Shown: in pieces, positions 29,803 through 43,446 of the stretch
How positions within the stretch are numbered: the first letter of the stretch is position 1
Layout: each line of letters begins with the position of its first letter
NCBI GenBank assembly: GCA_934793215.1
Contig: CAKVOP010000001.1
Coordinates: forward strand, 66,280 to 130,279
DNA from: an uncultured Clostridia bacterium
GTDB taxonomy: Bacteria; Bacillota; Clostridia; Christensenellales; UBA1242
Length of the DNA stretch: 64,000 bases
Reading direction: 5' to 3'
Translations under genes and position numbers: made by a program
The notes under the pieces: model-generated
Databases searched by the model: none
Told to the model about the DNA's origin: nothing
The model's input: only the letters and a program-made list of their open reading frames with translations

Positions 29803-30546
29803 TTATCTTTCTGGTTCTTCATCTTCAAGGTCGGTAGGCTCGCCATTTTCTGGTTTCGCACCACAAGCAATGAGCAGTGTTATGATATCTTTTTGCTGAT
29901 AATACTCGGCGATATCGAGTGCACTTTTTCCTTCGTTATTTCTAACATTTATATCAGCACCATGATCTATAAGCAATCTACAAGTATCTTTTTTGCCTGC
30001 TGATGCTGCTTTCATTAATGGTGTGCTTCCATTTTCATTGACAGCATTAACATCAGCGCCGTTTTCAATGAGTAGCCTGCAAACGCTTGTGTGTCCAGTC
30101 AATGCACCAACCATCAATGCAGTGCATTTATCTGCATCTACCGCATTTACAAGTGCACCATTTTGAATAAGAAGTTTGCAAACCTCTATTTGACCAGTCC
30201 ATGTGGCTTCCATAAGTGGGGAACACCCCATTAGGCCGACAGCATTAACATCAGCACCATGATTGATTAAAAATCGGCAAATCTCTGTTTGCCCTTTTAA
30301 CGCTAAACGCATAAGTAGCGTGTAGCCGAACTTGTCATTTGAATTAACATTTGCGCCATTTTCAATTAAAAGCTCGCAGATTGCCATTTGTCCTTTTGTA
30401 ACTGCAATCATTAAAGCGGTGCATTCATTTTTATCAATAGCATTTACATCGGCTCCGTCTTTTAAAAGCTTTTGAATCTTTATAATGTTTCCTTCCTTGC
30501 ATGCACTCAAGAACTTTTCATCTAACAGTAATTTTTTGTTTTTCAT
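29803..30546 (-). CDS. ankyrin repeat protein (about 7 ANK repeats, acidic C-terminus)
   Basis: Repeated G.T.LM.A...G....C.LLI..GA.VN units through the whole protein. No signal peptide seen. Confidence 0.9.
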   Translation of the reverse strand: MKNKKLLLDEKFLSACKEGNIIKIQKLLKDGADVNAIDKNECTALMIAVTKGQMAICELLIENGANVNSNDKFGYTLLMRLALKGQTEICRFLINHGADVNAVGLMGCSPLMEATWTGQIEVCKLLIQNGALVNAVDADKCTALMVGALTGHTSVCRLLIENGADVNAVNENGSTPLMKAASAGKKDTCRLLIDHGADINVRNNEGKSALDIAEYYQQKDIITLLIACGAKPENGEPTDLEDEEPER

Positions 30547-30786: not shown

Positions 30787-30815
30787 TTGACTATTTTATT
30801 TTTATTGCGTATAAT
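30787..30815 (+). promoter_or_regulatory. sigma-A promoter of the hrcA-grpE-dnaK-dnaJ operon
   Basis: TTGACT, 17 nt spacer, TATAAT. Confidence 0.8.
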
Positions 30816-30819
30816 ATTG

Positions 30820-30846
30820 CTAGCACTTAAAAGTAGAGAGTGCTAA
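30820..30846 (+). promoter_or_regulatory. CIRCE operator (HrcA binding site)
   Basis: CTAGCACTT-N9-GAGTGCTAA against the consensus TTAGCACTC-N9-GAGTGCTAA, immediately downstream of the -10. Confidence 0.9.
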
Positions 30847-30869: not shown

Positions 30870-31865
30870 ATGGTTTTAAACGAACGAAGAAAGCAAATCT
30901 TAACTATGGCAGTTGAAGAGTACATTCGAGATTGCTCACCAATCACAAGTGGGGGAATCAAAGATGTCGCATCATTAAACTGCTCAACAGCGACTCTGCG
31001 AAACGAACTTTCCACATTGGAGGCTATGGGATTTTTAAAACAACTCCATACTTCTGGCGGAAGGATTCCAACAGTCCAAGGTTATAGATATTATGTTGAA
31101 AACCTTTTGTCAAGCGCACAAGCGTCAAACAAAGAACTTGAAGATGTGAAAAAAGTTATATCTTCAAGAACATCATCTCTAACTGATATTGTAACAGGGA
31201 TCGCAAAGATTGTCTCAAAGGCGACAAACTATCCAACGGCTATCATGGTTAGCGGAGTGGAACATTTAGTTTTAAACGAATTTAAAATTATTCCACTTCT
31301 TGACGAAAAAATTATGGTGCTAATTGGAACAATGTCTGGCTACATCAATCAAACTATTGAAGTTAAAGCGTCGGCAAAGGATTGCGAAGATGCGTCAAAT
31401 TATTTAACAAAACATTTTCGTGGCGAAACGATTGGATATATGATTGAAAACATAAACCAATTTGAAAAAGGAATGAAAAGTGAGATTAAATCTTTTGAGG
31501 GCGTTGTAAATTCGCTTATCGAAGGACTTAAAAACCTAAACAAGCAAAAGTATTTAGATGTTAGACGAGAGGGAAGCGGGAAAATATTGTCATCTAGCGA
31601 CAAAGAGAGTGCTCAAAAAGTGCTTGATGTACTTGATGATGAAAAAGAACTTTCGTCAATCTTGGAGGTTAAAGGCGAAGATATAGAAGTAACAGTGGCT
31701 GACGAGGACAACGCAAAGTGTAGTGTTGTTAAAGCACCAATTTGTGTAAACGGAAAACAACTTGCTTCAATCGGCGTCATAGGGCCTCAACGAATGGATT
31801 ATGCGGGGATTGCATCGGCTCTTAAAGTAGTGATTGACAATCTTCGAGAAATAAAAGGAGAGTAA
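30870..31865 (+). CDS. hrcA: heat-inducible transcription repressor HrcA
   Basis: MVLNERRKQILTMAVEEYI...PITSGGI winged-helix N-terminus. First gene after CIRCE. Confidence 0.9.
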   Translation: MVLNERRKQILTMAVEEYIRDCSPITSGGIKDVASLNCSTATLRNELSTLEAMGFLKQLHTSGGRIPTVQGYRYYVENLLSSAQASNKELEDVKKVISSRTSSLTDIVTGIAKIVSKATNYPTAIMVSGVEHLVLNEFKIIPLLDEKIMVLIGTMSGYINQTIEVKASAKDCEDASNYLTKHFRGETIGYMIENINQFEKGMKSEIKSFEGVVNSLIEGLKNLNKQKYLDVRREGSGKILSSSDKESAQKVLDVLDDEKELSSILEVKGEDIEVTVADEDNAKCSVVKAPICVNGKQLASIGVIGPQRMDYAGIASALKVVIDNLREIKGE

Positions 31866-32555
31866 ATGAAGGAAAAGGACAAAGAGAAAGAGTATAATTG
31901 TCATTGCAGTGAGCATGGCGAGGGCGAAAAATGTTCTTGCGGTGATAACTGCACATGTGGAGATAACTGCACATGTGGAGACGATTGCCACTGTCACCAA
32001 ACTAACCAAAGCAATGAAAATTGCTCGTGTGGTGATGATTGTACATGCGAAGAAGATTGCACTTGCTCCTCAAACGGAGGTTGCGAATGTGACGACAAAC
32101 CAGATAATTGCAACTGTGTGACAGACGAAAAAGTCTTGGCTGATCAATATCTTAATCTTGCAAAGCGTGTTCAAGCAGATTTTGAAAATTTTAGACGACA
32201 TGCGATTGAAGATATAAAAAGTGCTAGAATTGATGGTCAAAAGTCAGTTATCGAAGTGTTTTTGCCTTGCCTTGATACTTTCAAAGAGGCAAAAAAATCA
32301 ATTAATGATGAAGCGGTTTTAAAAGGCGTTGAAATGATTGAAAATAAGATTTTAGACGCACTTAAATCACTTGGGGTAGAAAAAATCCCTTCTATTGGAG
32401 AGGTTTACAACCCTCACCTTCATGAAGCCATGATGGCAATGAAAGATGAAAAGAAAGAAAACAATATCATCTTGGACGAGTTCCAAGCAGGATATATGTT
32501 TGAAGGTAAAGTAATTAGACATTCAAAAGTTATTGTCAATAAAAAGGAGGATTAA
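31866..32555 (+). CDS. grpE: nucleotide exchange factor GrpE with a Cys-rich (10x CxC) N-terminal extension
   Basis: The GrpE core starts about [22 protein letters not shown]. Residues ~12-85 contain 20 Cys arranged as CxC pairs. Confidence 0.9.
31941..31994 (+). repeat. tandem 18-nt repeat x3 encoding [18 protein letters not shown]
   Basis: ggtgataactgcacatgt / ggagataactgcacatgt / ggagacgattgccactgt. Related units recur to about 32100. Confidence 0.85.
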
Positions 32556-32559
32556 TATT

Positions 32560-34401
32560 ATGGGAAAAATTATTGGTATTGACTTAGGAACTACAAACTC
32601 ATGTGTAGCAGTTATGGAAGGTGGTAAACCAACCGTTATCGCAAATGCAGAAGGGGACAGAACAACTCCATCTGTTGTTGCATACACCAAAGAAGGGGAA
32701 AGACTTGTTGGAAAGGTTGCAAAGCGTCAAGCTATCGTAAACGCTGAAAACACAGTTCAATCTATCAAAAGAGAGATGGGAACAAATTATAAAGTAACAT
32801 TAAATGGCAAAGAGTACACTCCACAAGAGATTTCTGCGATGATTCTTTCAAAACTTAAACAAGATGCTGAAAGTTATCTTGGTGGAGCAGTAACCCAAGC
32901 AGTAATCACTGTTCCTGCATACTTTAACGATGCACAGCGTCAAGCAACAAAAGACGCGGGCAAAATCGCTGGTCTTGAAGTTTTAAGAATTATCAACGAA
33001 CCAACTGCCGCTGCTCTTGCATATGGACTTGATAAAGGCGAAAACGCAAATCAAAAGATTTTAGTTTATGACCTCGGTGGCGGTACATTCGATGTTTCTA
33101 TTCTTGAAATTGGTGACGGCGTATTTGAAGTTCTTTCAACAAATGGCAACACTCGTCTTGGCGGTGATGATTTTGATAACAGAATTATTGACCTTTTGGT
33201 TGAAGAATTTAAGAGAACAAACAATATTGACTTAACAAGCGACAAACTTGCTATGCAAAGACTTAAAGAGGCTGCTGAAAAGGCAAAAATTGACCTTTCT
33301 GCAACTCCAAAAACAACAATTTCTCTTCCATTCATTTCTGCTGACGCTACTGGTCCTAAACATATGGAATATGAACTTACTCGTGCAAAATTTGACGACA
33401 TTACAAGTGATCTTGTAAAAGAAACAATTGACTGCACTGTAAGAGCACTTGCCGATGCAAAACTTGACAAAAATCAAATTGATAAAGTGGTTTTAGTTGG
33501 TGGTTCAACAAGAATCCCAGCTGTTCAAGAAGCAGTAAAATCATTTACTGGTAAAGAGCCATATAAGGGCGTAAACCCAGATGAATGCGTTGCCGTAGGT
33601 GCAGCAATTCAAGCAGGCGTTCTTGGCGGAGAAGTTAAAGATGTTCTTCTTCTTGATGTAACCCCACTTTCTCTTGGTATTGAAACTTTGGGTGGAGTAT
33701 TTACAAAACTCATCGAAAGAAATACAACTATCCCTACAAGAAAATCTCAAATTTTCTCAACTGCTGTTGACAACCAACCAGGCGTTGATATTCATGTTCT
33801 TCAAGGTGAAAGAGAGTTTGCAAATCAAAACAAAACTCTTGGAAGATTCCAATTAAGCGATATTCCACCAGCACCAAGAGGAGTTCCTCAAATCGAAGTA
33901 ACTTTTGATATTGATGCAAATGGTATCGTTAAAGTTTCAGCAAAAGACCTTGGAACAAACAAGGAACAAAACATCACAATCACTGCTTCTTCAAACCTTA
34001 AAGATGAAGATATCGAAAAGGCAATCAAAGAAGCCGAAGCTCACGCAGAGGAAGATAAGAAGCGTAAAGAGCTTGTTGAAACTAAAAACCAAGCCGATAA
34101 TATGGTTTATGGACTTGAAAAAATGCTTAAAGAAAATGGTGATAAACTTGCAGACGAAGATAAGAAAAGACTTCAAGACGCCATTGAAAAAGCAAAGAAA
34201 GAGTTTGAAAGTGATAACATTGAAGTCGTTAAGAAAGCTCTTGAAGAACTTACAAATGTTTCAAATGGTATAGTTTCAAAAATGTATCAATCAGCAAACC
34301 CAAATGGTGGGGCTAATCCTAACGGAGGAGCAAACCCAAATGGTGGAACTGATGGTAATAATGGCTCAAACGGAAGTGACCCAGAAGTTGTAGTTGACTA
34401 A
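32560..34401 (+). CDS. dnaK: molecular chaperone DnaK
   Basis: [14 protein letters not shown]... ATG at 32560 follows AAGGAGG. The C-terminus carries GGANPN x3. Confidence 0.97.
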
Positions 34402-34591: not shown

Positions 34592-35725
34592 ATGGCAAGT
34601 AAAGACTATTATGAAATTCTTGGTGTAAGTAAAGATGCAAGTGAAGATGAAATTAAATCTGCTTATCGCAGACTTGCAAAGAAGTATCACCCAGATTTGA
34701 ATAAAACTGAAGAAGCGGCAAGTAAGTTTAAAGAAATTAACGAAGCTTATGAAGTGCTTGGCGACAGCAAAAAGAGAGCAAATTATGACCAATTTGGCTC
34801 GGCTGACGGCAATCCTTTTGGTGCTGGCGGAAACGCTGGTGGTGGTTTTGGAGATTTCTTTGGTGGAGGTGCTGGTGGCTTTGGTGATATTTTTGGCGAC
34901 ATCTTCTCTGCTTTCGGCGGAGGCACTCGTGGAGGCTCACGAGTTTCACAGCAGGGAGAAGACATTAATCTTGCCATGAACCTCACCTTCGAAGAGGCTT
35001 GCTTTGGCGTTGAAAAAGATATAACTGTTGGCAAGATTGAACAGTGTGCTTCTTGCCACGGCACAGGAGCAAAAAATGGAAGTGAATTCACCACTTGTTC
35101 TCAATGCGGTGGAAGCGGAAGAGTTCGCATGCAAGAGCGTACAATATTTGGCGTAAGTATTCGTGAAGGTGCTTGCCCAAAATGTAATGGAACTGGCAAA
35201 ATCATCAAAGAAAAATGCGATGATTGTATGGGCAAAGGGTATAGAAAGATTAACAAACAAATTCATGTCAAATTTCCAGCAGGTATTGACAATGGACAAA
35301 CGCTTCGCATGAGAGGGGAAGGTAATGCTCCTACTTCGGGTGCAGGCGTAAACGGTGACCTTAACATTAAAGTAAGTGTTGGCTCGCATCGTGTTCTTGT
35401 AAGAAAAGGCTACGATTTAACTATGGACCTCTATGTACCTTTCACAACAGCACTTCTTGGCGGAAAAATTGAAATTCCAAGCCTTGAAGGGAAATATGAA
35501 CTTAAAATTCCAGAACGCACAATAAGCGGAACTGTGCTTCGCGTTAAAAATAAGGGAGTACAAAACTTAAACAGTAAAAACAGAGGCGACCTGCTTGTCA
35601 CAATTAAAGCAGAAATGCCTTCGTCTTTAAGTAAAGATGAGAAGAGTGCCATTGAATCGCTTGCAAATTCAATAGGTGATAATTCTTACCCAAAATATAA
35701 TGAAATTTTAAGAAAAATTAAATAA
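34592..35725 (+). CDS. dnaJ: molecular chaperone DnaJ
   Basis: J-domain with HPD, a G/F-rich region and four CxxCxGxG zinc-finger motifs. Confidence 0.95.
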
Positions 35726-38128: not shown

Positions 38129-38434
38129 TTAAATGCAGTCCCTGCTTATACTTGATGACAACAAATATCCAGCAAGGAAGAAAAGTGTTGACTTTGGAAA
38201 TGAAAATTGTACGCAGTCACATTTTCTTTCATGTTCTGGGCAACAGCCTCCGCAAGGAGGATATGGCTGTGGACAAGGCGGAAATTGTGGAGGGTAAGGA
38301 ATGTTCCAAGGTGGAATAGATGTGCAAGGGGACAAGCAAGGAGAAGTACAATGGGGAATGCATGGATTCTGTCCGCAACAATAGTTAGGACGCAAAGACA
38401 CGCATTTGCCCATACGATAAGGACAAGTTTTCAT
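38129..38434 (-). CDS. small Cys/Pro-rich protein (candidate spore coat/exosporium component)
   Basis: AAAGGAG RBS and its own terminator. 101 aa with 15 Cys and many Pro (CIPHCTSPCLSPCTS, PPCPQPYPPCGGCCP). Confidence 0.6.
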   Translation of the reverse strand: MKTCPYRMGKCVSLRPNYCCGQNPCIPHCTSPCLSPCTSIPPWNIPYPPQFPPCPQPYPPCGGCCPEHERKCDCVQFSFPKSTLFFLAGYLLSSSISRDCI

Positions 38435-41113: not shown

Positions 41114-41404
41114 ATGGAAGAGGAGGACATGATAAAAAAAGCCTTGCTTAAAAAGGCACTAGGCTATGATGCAGACGATGTTGTAAAAGAGTACACAGGC
41201 GGTGAAGATGGTGACATTGTGCTAGCCAAAAAGAAAGTCACCACAAAGCATTATGCACCTGACGTGTCAGCGGTAAAACTGCTTCTTGACAGATACTATA
41301 AAACTTATAAAGAAATCGTGGACGAAATGACAGATGAAGCCCTGGAAGAGGAAAAGAATAGACTTGAAAAACTTATTAAGGAGGAAGAAGATGGAACTTC
41401 ATGA
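41114..41404 (+). CDS. small-terminase core-like protein lacking an N-terminal HTH
   Basis: KKALGYDADDVVKEY..GEDGDIVLAKKKVTTKHYAPDVSAVKLLLDRY resembles, from memory, the oligomerisation core of SPP1 G1P-type TerS (IALGQEKEQV...THVEVSAKDRIKALELLGK). An in-frame stop lies 8 codons upstream. Confidence 0.4.
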   Translation: MEEEDMIKKALLKKALGYDADDVVKEYTGGEDGDIVLAKKKVTTKHYAPDVSAVKLLLDRYYKTYKEIVDEMTDEALEEEKNRLEKLIKEEEDGTS

Positions 41405-41627
41405 GTGTAATCATTTTTGCAAATGCGACTTTAATGGCTGTAATAACAGAGCAAAGTATACTTTCTCATGTGGTGGGAACATCAGGCGTGATCTTTGCTT
41501 TTGTGAAGAATGTTTGAAGGGAATGTATAACGAAATATCCAAAATGTTCGTGCCAAAAGCGATCAAAAGTCCATTTAAGATAAATCAAAGATTAAGGAGA
41601 GAAGATGAAAGAAGAAAAGATTGTTAA
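41391..41627 (+). CDS. Cys-rich (zinc-ribbon-like) small protein
   Basis: AAGGAGG RBS. MELHECNHFCKCDFNGCNN...CGG...CFCEECLKG followed by a basic tail. Overlaps both neighbouring genes. Confidence 0.55.
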   Translation: MELHECNHFCKCDFNGCNNRAKYTFSCGGNIRRDLCFCEECLKGMYNEISKMFVPKAIKSPFKINQRLRREDERRKDC

Positions 41628-43446
41628 AGAAGTCCTTGACGACTTTAAGAAACGCGCCGAAGAGCGCAAAAGTTTTGACCTCATTTGGCAGATAAACTCT
41701 AACTTTTTAATGGGTAACCAGTACTGTAATGTGGGTTACGGTGGTGAACTCGAAGAGCAAGACCGTCAGTTTTTTTGGCAAGAGAGGGAAGTTTTCAACC
41801 ATATCGCACCAATTTATGACATAAGATTTGCAAAACTATCAAAAGTCAAACCAAACATAAACATCTTGCCTGCGACAAACGAAGAAAAGGACAAGCAAAT
41901 TGCCAAAATTTCAAAGAAAATTTATCAATCTGTGAAAAACAAACTTGAAATAAATGAAAAAGTGAACCAAGCAATAAAATGGAGTGAGGTTTGTGGAACA
42001 GTGTTTTATAAAGTGGGTTGGAACTCAAATATTGGGCAGGTTGTAGGAATTGGTGAAAACGACAAAAAAATCACCTCGGGTGAGGTCGAACTCAGTGTGG
42101 TAAGCCCATTTGAAATTTATCCAGATTCCGCCACTTGTGAAAGTCTTGATGAGTGCCAGAGCATAATTCACGCCAAGGCGTATAAGACCAGTCAAATTAA
42201 ATCAATGTATGGCATCGATGTGAAAGGGCAAGACGTAAATGTGTTCTCGCTTGACGGAGTCAGTGGGTCTGTTGGAGGTCTTGGGTTTAATGGAGCGATG
42301 CCCAAAATTATACAAACCCGCAAAACAGATTCAGCGGTTGTGGTTGAAAGATATGTTCGACCTTGTGCTGAATATCCTAATGGGCGTCTTACCATAGTCG
42401 CTGGCGACAGGCTTGCTTTCGATGGAGATTTGCCATATATGATTAAAGATGACAAGGAGCGGGACTTCCCATTTATTAGACAAACCAGTATCGAGGAGCC
42501 GGGCTGCTTTTGGGGAACTAGTGTAATTGAACGCCTTATTCCTGTGCAAAGAGCCTACAACGCGGTTAAAAATCGCAAACATGAATTTATTAATCGTATT
42601 TCTATGGGAGTACTTTCTGTTGAAGATGGTTCCGTCGACCTTGACAATTTAGAACAAGAGGGGCTATGCCCGGGGAAAGTCTTGGTTTATAGACAGGGGG
42701 CAAAAGAGCCTCAATATCTTCAAAGTGAGGCGATAAGTGGCGAACTTGCAAAGGAAGAAGATGCACTTTTAGAGGAGTTTAACAAAATTAGCGGAGTTAG
42801 TGATATTTTGGGATCGAGCGGAGTTTCAGCAAATATGAGCGGAGTTACGCTTGAGCTCATGATCTCGCAAGACGAAACACGACTTAATGCCTCTGTTGAA
42901 GCAATCAAGATTGCGATGCGTGAAATTGCCAAAAAGATTTTAAAACTTTATAGACAATTTGCGGTTTTCCCACGCCTTGCAAGAATAGTGGGTGAAAATG
43001 GAGATGTGGAAATATTTTATTTCTCGTCAAGTGATATAACAAGCGATGACATAATTGTGGACGATTACGCAGACACCAATCAAACGCTTTCTCAACGAAG
43101 AGAAATGATTTTTAACTTGCTTGAAAATGGAATTTTGACTGACGAGAAAGGAAATCTTACAAACAAAATGAAAACAAAAGTAATGGAGATGCTAGGAATT
43201 GGTGCATGGGAAAGTGCTCAAGACATAAATGAGCTTCACATTAAAAAGGCGGATAAAGAAAACTTCAAACTGCTTGACGGTATTAATTTAAAGCCTAGTG
43301 AAATTGATGACCATGAACTTCACATAAATGAGCATGTGGCTTTTATGCTGGGTGAAGATTTTGAAAAGAAAAAAGCTAAAAATCCAAAAATAGAACAAAT
43401 TTTTTTAGAGCATGTTAAGGCTCACAAGATGATGAAGGAGGAATAA
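41605..43446 (+). CDS. phage portal-like protein
   Basis: 613 aa. N-terminal W..N.NFL.GNQY motif typical of portal families. It sits ahead of the scaffold- and capsid-like genes. AAGGAG RBS. Confidence 0.6.
   Translation: MKEEKIVKEVLDDFKKRAEERKSFDLIWQINSNFLMGNQYCNVGYGGELEEQDRQFFWQEREVFNHIAPIYDIRFAKLSKVKPNINILPATNEEKDKQIAKISKKIYQSVKNKLEINEKVNQAIKWSEVCGTVFYKVGWNSNIGQVVGIGENDKKITSGEVELSVVSPFEIYPDSATCESLDECQSIIHAKAYKTSQIKSMYGIDVKGQDVNVFSLDGVSGSVGGLGFNGAMPKIIQTRKTDSAVVVERYVRPCAEYPNGRLTIVAGDRLAFDGDLPYMIKDDKERDFPFIRQTSIEEPGCFWGTSVIERLIPVQRAYNAVKNRKHEFINRISMGVLSVEDGSVDLDNLEQEGLCPGKVLVYRQGAKEPQYLQSEAISGELAKEEDALLEEFNKISGVSDILGSSGVSANMSGVTLELMISQDETRLNASVEAIKIAMREIAKKILKLYRQFAVFPRLARIVGENGDVEIFYFSSSDITSDDIIVDDYADTNQTLSQRREMIFNLLENGILTDEKGNLTNKMKTKVMEMLGIGAWESAQDINELHIKKADKENFKLLDGINLKPSEIDDHELHINEHVAFMLGEDFEKKKAKNPKIEQIFLEHVKAHKMMKEE

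Follow-up and report, generated by a model that had tools for sequence, protein, structure and literature searches.

We examine a GrpE protein encoded in 64,000 nucleotides of DNA from an uncultured Clostridia bacterium of the order Christensenellales (UBA1242; GenBank assembly GCA_934793215.1, contig CAKVOP010000001.1, positions 66,280 to 130,279 of the forward strand). The whole 64,000-nucleotide stretch is called the window here, and positions are counted from its first letter. GrpE, the exchange factor of the DnaK chaperone cycle, is encoded in an hrcA-grpE-dnaK-dnaJ operon. The first approximately 85 residues of this GrpE are a translated, disordered, and very acidic module of Cys-x-Cys (CxC) pairs that grew, and continues to lengthen and shorten, by tandem duplication of an 18-nucleotide (nt), six-amino-acid (aa) unit and that is kept by selection throughout a large clade of uncultured Clostridia. 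The gene has the following features:

31866..32555, + strand: grpE, 229 aa plus stop, second gene of the operon (open reading frame translation, Pfam, AlphaFold, Foldseek)
31899..32117, + strand: Cys-rich, metallothionein-like tail, residues 12-84 (sequence, conservation, codon analysis, AlphaFold)
31932..32003, + strand: four consecutive in-frame hexapeptide units, residues 23-46 (sequence; family hexad consensus)
31944..31981, + strand: perfect tandem duplication, 2.1 copies of the 18-nt unit GATAACTGCACATGTGGA (Tandem Repeats Finder, 100% match, score 76)
32127..32552, + strand: canonical GrpE core, residues 88-229, with a long helix (88-145), a second helix (149-168), and a beta domain (AlphaFold predicted local distance difference test, pLDDT, about 90)

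The cysteine-rich extension of GrpE

The tail holds 20 Cys in 73 residues, all of them in ten CxC pairs (positions 12, 14, 23, 25, 29, 31, 35, 37, 41, 43, 53, 55, 59, 61, 65, 67, 73, 75, 82, and 84), together with four His (13, 17, 42, and 44). The spacers between the pairs consist chiefly of Gly, Asp, Glu, and Asn. One aromatic residue, Y10, lies just outside the Cys region, and no aliphatic residue occurs from M1 to V85. In a six-frame scan of the window, grpE has the highest Cys density, with 17 Cys in 60 aa; the next open reading frame (ORF) has 12, and the others have at most 9. The initial annotation of this DNA, made from the letters alone, had described ten CxC pairs (20 Cys) plus several His in the GrpE N terminus. 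Those counts are correct, and translation of 31866..32552 gives the identical sequence. The same annotation had read three perfect-phase 18-nt repeats at 31941-31994, which must be reduced to 2.1 perfect copies: the third in-phase unit, GGAGACGATTGCCACTGT, matches at 12 of 18 bases, and the flanking units are degenerate.

An ordinary GrpE coiled coil was proposed to follow straight after the Cys tail, and it does. Specifically, the AlphaFold helix runs from residue 88, and the Pfam GrpE domain (PF01025) covers residues 92-226 and profile positions 27-165 of 165, with 118.5 bits against a cut-off of 25.8 (E 3e-34). AlphaFold and Foldseek agree on the GrpE fold, that is, a long N-terminal helix, a helical bundle, and a C-terminal beta domain, and the top 13 Foldseek matches in the PDB are all GrpE or GrpEL1 (E 8e-14 to 7.5e-5). 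The best NCBIfam GrpE equivalog model, NF010738, scores 112.9 bits against a cut-off of 137, which we take as the mark of a divergent GrpE lineage and not as an argument against family membership.

The tail itself has essentially no secondary structure in AlphaFold models of either the full-length protein or the tail alone (pLDDT 38-61, and 38-51 for residues 12-84); the tail-only model has a mean pLDDT of 49 and a predicted template modeling score (pTM) of 0.20. Such predicted disorder is as would be expected of an apo-thionein, and low AlphaFold confidence is also reported for the metallothionein part of another bacterial metallothionein fusion (PMC13578184). The metallothionein-like composition noted initially holds for the translated extension, which is acidic, has a very high Cys content in CxC motifs, and is nearly devoid of aromatic and other hydrophobic residues. 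The module is not a small polypeptide of its own and forms the N-terminal domain of a GrpE of 229 aa. Besides GrpE, a Pfam scan at E up to 1 gave only Metallothio_5 (17.7 bits, with a threshold of 25), and at E<0.01 only 2 tails out of 44 match this family. The hexad C-x-C-G-[DE]-[DEN] also mirrors the [small]-x-[LIV]-G-[DE]-[ND] unit of hexapeptide-repeat proteins, two of which (P0147 and P0150) were matched, and an LpxD model matches weakly (E 0.011, 14.7 bits). These likenesses could suggest a folded, beta-helix-like domain with Cys replacing Ile, Leu, or Val, instead of a metal-thiolate cluster. However, the LpxD score lies far below its cut-off of 242.5 bits, the Pfam scan returned no hexapeptide-repeat family, neither AlphaFold model contains a beta-helix, and most family members do not keep a regular hexad register. 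We rejected the left-handed beta-helix on these scores and predictions, and we consider it scarcely credible.

The tail is encoded within a heat-shock operon, whose remaining features are:

30787..30815, + strand: sigma-70-type promoter of the hrcA-grpE-dnaK-dnaJ operon, TTGACT (30787-30792), 17-nt spacer, TATAAT (30810-30815), read from the sequence
30820..30846, + strand: controlling inverted repeat of chaperone expression (CIRCE) operator, predicted HrcA binding site, CTAGCACTT-N9-GAGTGCTAA, directly downstream of the promoter
30870..31865, + strand: hrcA, 331 aa (Pfam HrcA, 1.9e-30), with a TAA stop that adjoins the grpE ATG
31856..31860, + strand: Shine-Dalgarno sequence AGGAG, 5 nt 5' of the grpE ATG
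32560..34401, + strand: dnaK, 613 aa, the partner Hsp70 (ORF)
34592..35725, + strand: dnaJ, 377 aa, with four CxxCxGxG zinc motifs (ORF)

The gene order hrcA-grpE-dnaK-dnaJ, together with HrcA and CIRCE, is typical of Bacillota. The CIRCE element is a single match with 2 mismatches to TTAGCACTC-N9-GAGTGCTAA, for a chance expectation of 0.04, and with the promoter upstream of it, it bears out the CIRCE/HrcA control assigned to the operon by the initial annotation. Nine metagenome contigs, representing several samples, carry the identical GrpE and operon, and hrcA is called as 331 aa on every contig with the identical GrpE. The G+C content of the window is 36.5%, and an Rfam scan of the window gave no match. 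The DnaK C terminus (about 34330..34401), with three tandem ANPNGG hexapeptides followed by a terminal acidic motif, is another repeat-built disordered tail within the same operon.

Several observations establish that the tail frame is read and that its Cys are under purifying selection: the Shine-Dalgarno/ATG geometry, the abutment with hrcA, the lack of an alternative start with a Shine-Dalgarno sequence, a nonsynonymous divergence (pN) far below the synonymous one (pS), and the turnover between TGT and TGC codons. The hrcA stop adjoins the grpE ATG in four close relatives as well and is kept there in every relative examined, and AAGGAG or AGGAA sites lie upstream of the start of the Cys-rich ORF in four more distant relatives (L001-L004). 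In codon alignments with four relatives whose proteins are 64-76% identical, tail pN is 0.21-0.32 and pS is 0.72-0.96, values to be read as semi-quantitative. Twelve columns are Cys in all five sequences, and both TGT and TGC are used in 10 of those 12. The alternative is that the Cys-rich region is untranslated and that the real GrpE begins near residue 85-91. The initial annotation had allowed for such a downstream start, and two in-frame candidates do lie near the start of the core: GTG at 32118 and TTG at 32136, the only alternative starts before M156. Neither has a Shine-Dalgarno sequence, whereas the ATG at 31866 has AGGAG at -5. In addition, the frame is open and Cys-conserving in >140 homologues. 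Given this geometry, the hrcA-stop/ATG abutment, and the selection on the Cys frame, a downstream start is very unlikely, and we give next to no weight to an untranslated tail.

Distribution and plasticity of the module

A full-protein search of 5.8 billion proteins yielded 961 matches, the best 120 of which were analyzed for tails. All 120 carry a Cys-rich tail. Across 121 tails, length ranges from 41 to 137 aa (median 86) and the number of Cys from 6 to 31 (median 18). Successive Cys are spaced by 2 in 48% of cases and by 4 in 24%. Spacings of the CxxC kind, as are usual in zinc knuckles and Fe-S sites, account for only 3%. The family hexad consensus is C-x-C-G-[ED]-[EDN]. On average the tails consist of 29% Cys, 17% Glu, 13% Asp, 8% Lys, and 7% each of Gly, Asn, and His, with aliphatic and aromatic residues together below 1.5% of the Cys region. 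A tail-only alignment has a mean column identity of 20%, yet 13 of its Cys columns are at least 90% conserved.

Representative genomes place the trait more narrowly. Their contigs were scanned with the universal GrpE pattern ADFxNxRK, and the four close relatives are among the matches listed. Among these listed matches, 80 species-representative GrpE loci, Cys-rich tails occur only in the four closest, of which one is labeled uncultured Catabacter (Christensenellales) and three are uncultured Clostridia. The relative labeled 'uncultured Catabacter sp.' stands at 50% identity. In the remaining 76 loci, which belong to Bacilli, Actinomycetota, Acidobacteriota, Cyanobacteria, Negativicutes, and other Clostridia, the upstream frame contains no CxC pair and only 0-4 Cys in all. 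On these database counts, the Cys tail is a clade-wide feature with a patchy distribution, present in more than 100 related lineages, and not a one-off.

The initial annotation had also called the extension expandable and had pointed to GrpE orthologues as the place to look for it; there, the extension is present and its repeat number varies. According to Tandem Repeats Finder, each of the five close relatives contains 18- or 36-nt arrays, whose positions and stages of decay vary, with matches of 69-100% and up to 6 copies; the arrays of four close relatives match at 69-85%, and that of L001 at 71%. Whole CxC units have been gained or lost among the five close sequences, so that their tails vary between about 64 and 102 aa in length. 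Within clusters at >=90% identity, members differ in length only in the tail, in some cases by just one CxC pair. With tails of 41-137 aa in the wider set and strain indels confined to the tail, a build from 18-nt/6-aa units is borne out, and "expandable" is justified on the scale of evolutionary time. For the window allele itself, exact-match look-ups, which would have missed any copy-number variant, gave none. An extreme GrpE relative, L004 (2061..3203 of its locus; CALDMJ010000154.1, from an uncultured Clostridia metagenome-assembled genome), carries a 258-aa tail with 39 Cys. Its repeat grammar is different, with 48-nt units (CNSDCDCGCVD / CGKCxxGCxDPA) followed by a poly-His/Asn run, HHNHHHHHNHHHNNGEHHHEH.

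The tail is untraceable by ordinary sequence search. A word-index homology search with the tail alone gave 9 candidates, none significant, and an exhaustive phmmer search of 1.84 billion representatives gave 5 matches at E<1e-3, none of them GrpE. The missing GrpE matches are probably due to composition correction and 50% clustering. The exhaustive search did find a C-x-C-G-[DE]-x module on three non-GrpE proteins, P0146, P0148, and P0149. P0146 (L088 6001..6705) has a signal peptide, two modules, and an LPXTG/NPXTG-type surface anchor, and its gene adjoins an ATP synthase operon. P0149 (L087 698..1282; 194 aa) bears a module at each end, and its gene lies upstream of one for an extracytoplasmic function (ECF)-type sigma factor. 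P0148, a ferredoxin-like fragment of 69 aa, has a CxC tail. That the hexad module recurs on three or more unrelated proteins, including a surface-anchored one, hints at wider lineage-specific use.

Some orthologues lack the module. A search with the core only (residues 86-229) gave 118 classifiable top matches: the tail is Cys-rich in 100 of them, contains 0-2 Cys in 17, and contains a few in 1. In the two Cys-free orthologues examined, the order U32 peptidase-hrcA-grpE-dnaK-dnaJ-rsmE is retained and the hrcA stop abuts the grpE ATG; read from sequence, the Cys-free proteins are true orthologues. A relocated module was sought in two tail-less loci, and the flanks of grpE, about 7 kb in each direction, contain no Cys-rich ORF. 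The Cys-free tails are ordinary, being acidic and carrying an acid-flanked hydrophobic pair (DDDFIIS, AEIFGEE, GEIIPPE), a motif that the window protein lacks. In E. coli GrpE, the tail motif 17-IIM-19 binds the DnaK substrate cleft and promotes substrate release (PMC12915176). Such a motif is present in 13 of 21 (62%) Cys-poor tails versus 20 of 137 (15%) Cys-rich tails (Fisher p = 1e-5, uncorrected for phylogeny). A few Cys-rich tails (e.g., P0030, P0211, and P0229) have both elements, and in these the hydrophobic motif precedes the Cys module. This order suggests that the module originated in the segment separating the old motif from the coiled coil and that the motif disappeared afterwards. 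The core of one Cys-free group is 78-86% identical to the nearest Cys-rich protein (P0105 for four of five members) and only 74-81% identical to other Cys-free groups. This pattern implies at least two transitions between tail states, and no more than "at least two" is supported by the pairwise identities together with a neighbor-joining tree of the cores, which is crude.

Possible functions of the tail

We judge the most likely function of the tail, with moderate confidence, to be that of a heat-shock-induced metal/thiol buffer tethered beside the DnaK substrate-binding domain. The tail would work like a metallothionein: its roughly 20 thiolates and 4 imidazoles per chain would fold around Zn(II)/Cd(II) or Cu(I), and the GrpE dimer would double these numbers. 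By analogy with 20-Cys metallothioneins, the capacity may be roughly 6-7 divalent ions per chain. Because grpE lies in a CIRCE/HrcA heat-shock operon, buffer capacity would rise with DnaK and DnaJ whenever proteins unfold. The buffer would sit next to the DnaK substrate-binding domain, the known location of GrpE tails. Capacity and not exact geometry appears to be selected, given the 3-16 CxC pairs, their fast variation, and the existence of orthologues without the module. Finally, the loss of the pseudo-substrate motif would imply that tail-assisted substrate release is weakened or that it depends on the metal or redox state of the tail.

Several points weigh against the buffer or limit what underlies it. 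The tail cannot be essential to GrpE function, since about 15% of the closest orthologues do without it. No curated metallothionein family scored above threshold in the Pfam scan at E up to 1, and no bacterial metallothionein family appeared in it. A tail profile searched against the PDB at E up to 1 found one match, the snail Cd-metallothionein 6qk5 (E 0.011), under a strong composition bias, and the tail is far more acidic than classical metallothioneins. We infer metal binding by the tail, and a sequence by itself cannot name the metal. The dN/dS comparison is only semi-quantitative because pS is saturated and the alignment of the low-complexity tail is uncertain, the start sites of database homologues are gene-caller predictions, and the motif comparison carries the phylogenetic caveat given above. 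Low-complexity repeats in disordered tails can, moreover, spread under weak selection.

The tail could be largely a neutral expansion with no function of its own, produced by replication slippage of the 18-nt unit in a dispensable tail, where an anaerobic, reducing cytoplasm would tolerate the Cys. The 18/36-nt arrays, both perfect and decayed, frequent indels, the lack of a fold in AlphaFold, and orthologues that have no tail at all and cores 78-87% identical to those of Cys-rich proteins would all fit. However, Cys positions outlast both the decay of the DNA repeats and TGT/TGC turnover, the CxC grammar and its conserved Cys columns persist despite the low column identity, hydrophobic residues are excluded throughout, and for a heat-shock protein made in abundance, 20 free thiols on every chain would be a high price to pay if they served nothing. 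We consider neutral expansion unlikely. The tail could instead belong to a dedicated metallochaperone or store that hands metal to clients during folding, for instance Zn to the two zinc centers of DnaJ, or Ni/Fe to hydrogenases. SlyD, like Helicobacter pylori HspA, has a His/Cys-rich tail that serves nickel enzymes. HspA in particular, a Ni-scavenging chaperone with a lineage-specific metal-binding tail (PMC8779794, PMC5116745), provides a precedent, and dnaJ, with its four CxxCxGxG motifs, lies in the same operon. Against this stand the absence of any linked client or metal-enzyme gene in the window or the related loci examined, a His content of only 7% in the tail, unlike Ni-binding tails, and the variable copy number, which speaks against specific docking; a metallochaperone seems quite improbable.

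The main alternative, a redox or zinc switch, is possible but doubtful. The Cys pairs would be zinc-bound or reduced in anoxia, and oxygen or reactive oxygen species would drive disulfide formation and metal release. Engagement of DnaK by the tail or by the adjacent coiled coil would then be altered, and the Hsp70 cycle of a strict anaerobe slowed or held in a substrate-bound state during oxidative stress, as with Hsp33, GrpEL2 Cys87, and Mge1. GrpE-type factors are indeed redox-controlled, via the Cys87 disulfide in GrpEL2 and via Met oxidation in Mge1 (reviewed in PMC12987570). The tail stands directly before the thermosensing helix and near the DnaK substrate-binding domain (PMC12915176), the canonical pseudo-substrate motif is missing, so that a new tail action is plausible, and the hosts are Clostridia. 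A switch needs a defined set of Cys, however, and a strain-variable 3-16 CxC pairs fit dosage better than geometry; some orthologues, furthermore, have no tail. A related and equally tentative proposal is that a metal-thiolate module replaced the pseudo-substrate tail, so that substrate release, and perhaps the coiled-coil thermosensor, is gated by metal load or thiol redox state. If that were true, this would be the first bacterial Hsp70 exchange factor through which the chaperone cycle responds directly to metal or oxygen stress, and repeat copy number would set its sensitivity.

These operons are a candidate link between the heat-shock regulon and metal/thiol homeostasis in strict anaerobes. 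As a metallothionein-like sequence of bacteria, the module falls outside the SmtA/BmtA type and forms a new class, one that standard domain databases do not recognize. GrpE is among the most studied co-chaperones, and the action of its tail on the DnaK substrate-binding domain has been shown only recently. A clade that swaps this tail for a Cys module is a natural experiment on tail function; the clade is large, uncultured, and probably gut-associated.

Further observations and comparison with known systems

Other features of the window and of the searches merit mention. The second most Cys-dense frame of the window (38129..38434, - strand) lies between rsmE and a membrane-protein gene. It is a 101-aa Cys/Pro-rich ORF (CCGQNPCIPHCTSPCLSPCTS, PPCGGCCPEHERKCDC) with no Pfam match, and it could encode a small Cys-rich protein, of the spore-coat-like kind or another. 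An ankyrin-repeat protein of 247 aa (Ank_2, 1.1e-60) is encoded at 29803..30546 (- strand), with the U32 peptidase gene on one side and hrcA on the other. On another contig with the identical GrpE, the ankyrin protein is 181 aa, 66 aa or about two repeats shorter, and the gene is absent at the corresponding position in the relatives L090, L093, and L095; it is a strain-variable, repeat-number-variable insert of a kind unusual for bacteria. Phage-like genes are found at 41114..43446 (+ strand) and onward, and a prophage or remnant probably starts around 41.1 kb. Among these genes, a 613-aa ORF (41605..43446) matches P22-like and SU10 portal proteins (6.7e-18), and a 97-aa Cys-rich ORF (41334..41627) overlaps the start of the portal gene. 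Finally, the 90%-identity cluster of the GrpE P0024 also holds unrelated proteins of 165-200 aa, a clustering artifact that could mislead annotation transfer. One of its members, P0180, a 'zinc ribbon domain-containing protein' of Candidatus Blautia intestinavium, was set aside as unrelated and mis-clustered.

Among known systems, the metallothioneins (Diptera family 5, snail Cd-metallothionein 6qk5, and SmtA/BmtA) are the source of the only weak sequence matches of the tail. They share with it about 30% Cys in CxC motifs, few aromatic or aliphatic residues, disorder in the metal-free state (predicted here by AlphaFold), and modular duplication. Unlike them, the GrpE module is a domain of a 26-kDa protein, is far more acidic, and scores below the gathering threshold of the Pfam metallothionein models. 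Hsp33 has a CxC-containing cluster in which four fixed Cys bind one Zn in a folded domain. Its zinc-thiolate redox switch resembles the GrpE module in placing a CxC-containing Cys cluster on a chaperone-system protein, whereas the GrpE tails have 6-39 Cys in strain-variable number.

A bacterial fusion of a folded domain to a metallothionein domain, with AlphaFold likewise unsure of the metallothionein part, is reported as the TrxA thioredoxin-metallothionein chimera of Runella aurantiaca (PMC13578184). It shares no sequence, partner, or repeat architecture with the GrpE module. Its thioredoxin part is 96% identical to enterobacterial TrxA and its C-terminal metallothionein part 98% identical to the cyanobacterial (Synechococcus) SmtA (PMC13578184). 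The chimera is a weak precedent for natural metallothionein fusions, because it looks like a cloning-vector fusion contaminating an assembly.

Within the GrpE family, the closest counterpart is the E. coli tail (residues 1-33), which is likewise a disordered N-terminal segment before the coiled coil, directed toward the DnaK substrate-binding domain. The acidity of the Cys tails, about 31% Asp plus Glu, is close to the 29% of other GrpEs. In the canonical tail, 2-3 acid-flanked hydrophobic residues bind the DnaK cleft (PMC12915176); the window tail has none, and has 20 Cys instead. GrpEL2 Cys87 and Mge1 Met155 provide examples of an oxidizable sulfur near the Hsp70-contacting stalk of an exchange factor (PMC12987570). 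In those proteins, however, it is a single residue in the helical stalk, whereas the window GrpE has 20 Cys in a separate N-terminal module of variable length. No such GrpE was described in the papers found by a literature search on GrpE together with cysteine-rich, metallothionein(-like), or metal-binding sequences, and a 2025 review of GrpE-like factors, which treats both redox control and the function of the tail, makes no mention of metal or zinc (PMC12987570).

An analogy in concept is H. pylori HspA, a GroES. There, too, a lineage-specific, low-complexity, metal-binding tail sits on a co-chaperone, and a metal-handling capacity is co-expressed, as it would be here by analogy. The HspA tail is C-terminal, short, and His-dominated, and it binds Ni and Bi, whereas the GrpE tail is Cys-dominated, 41-137 aa long, and built from repeats, and the two share no homology. 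The metal-binding tail on a co-chaperone is already known as a concept from HspA.

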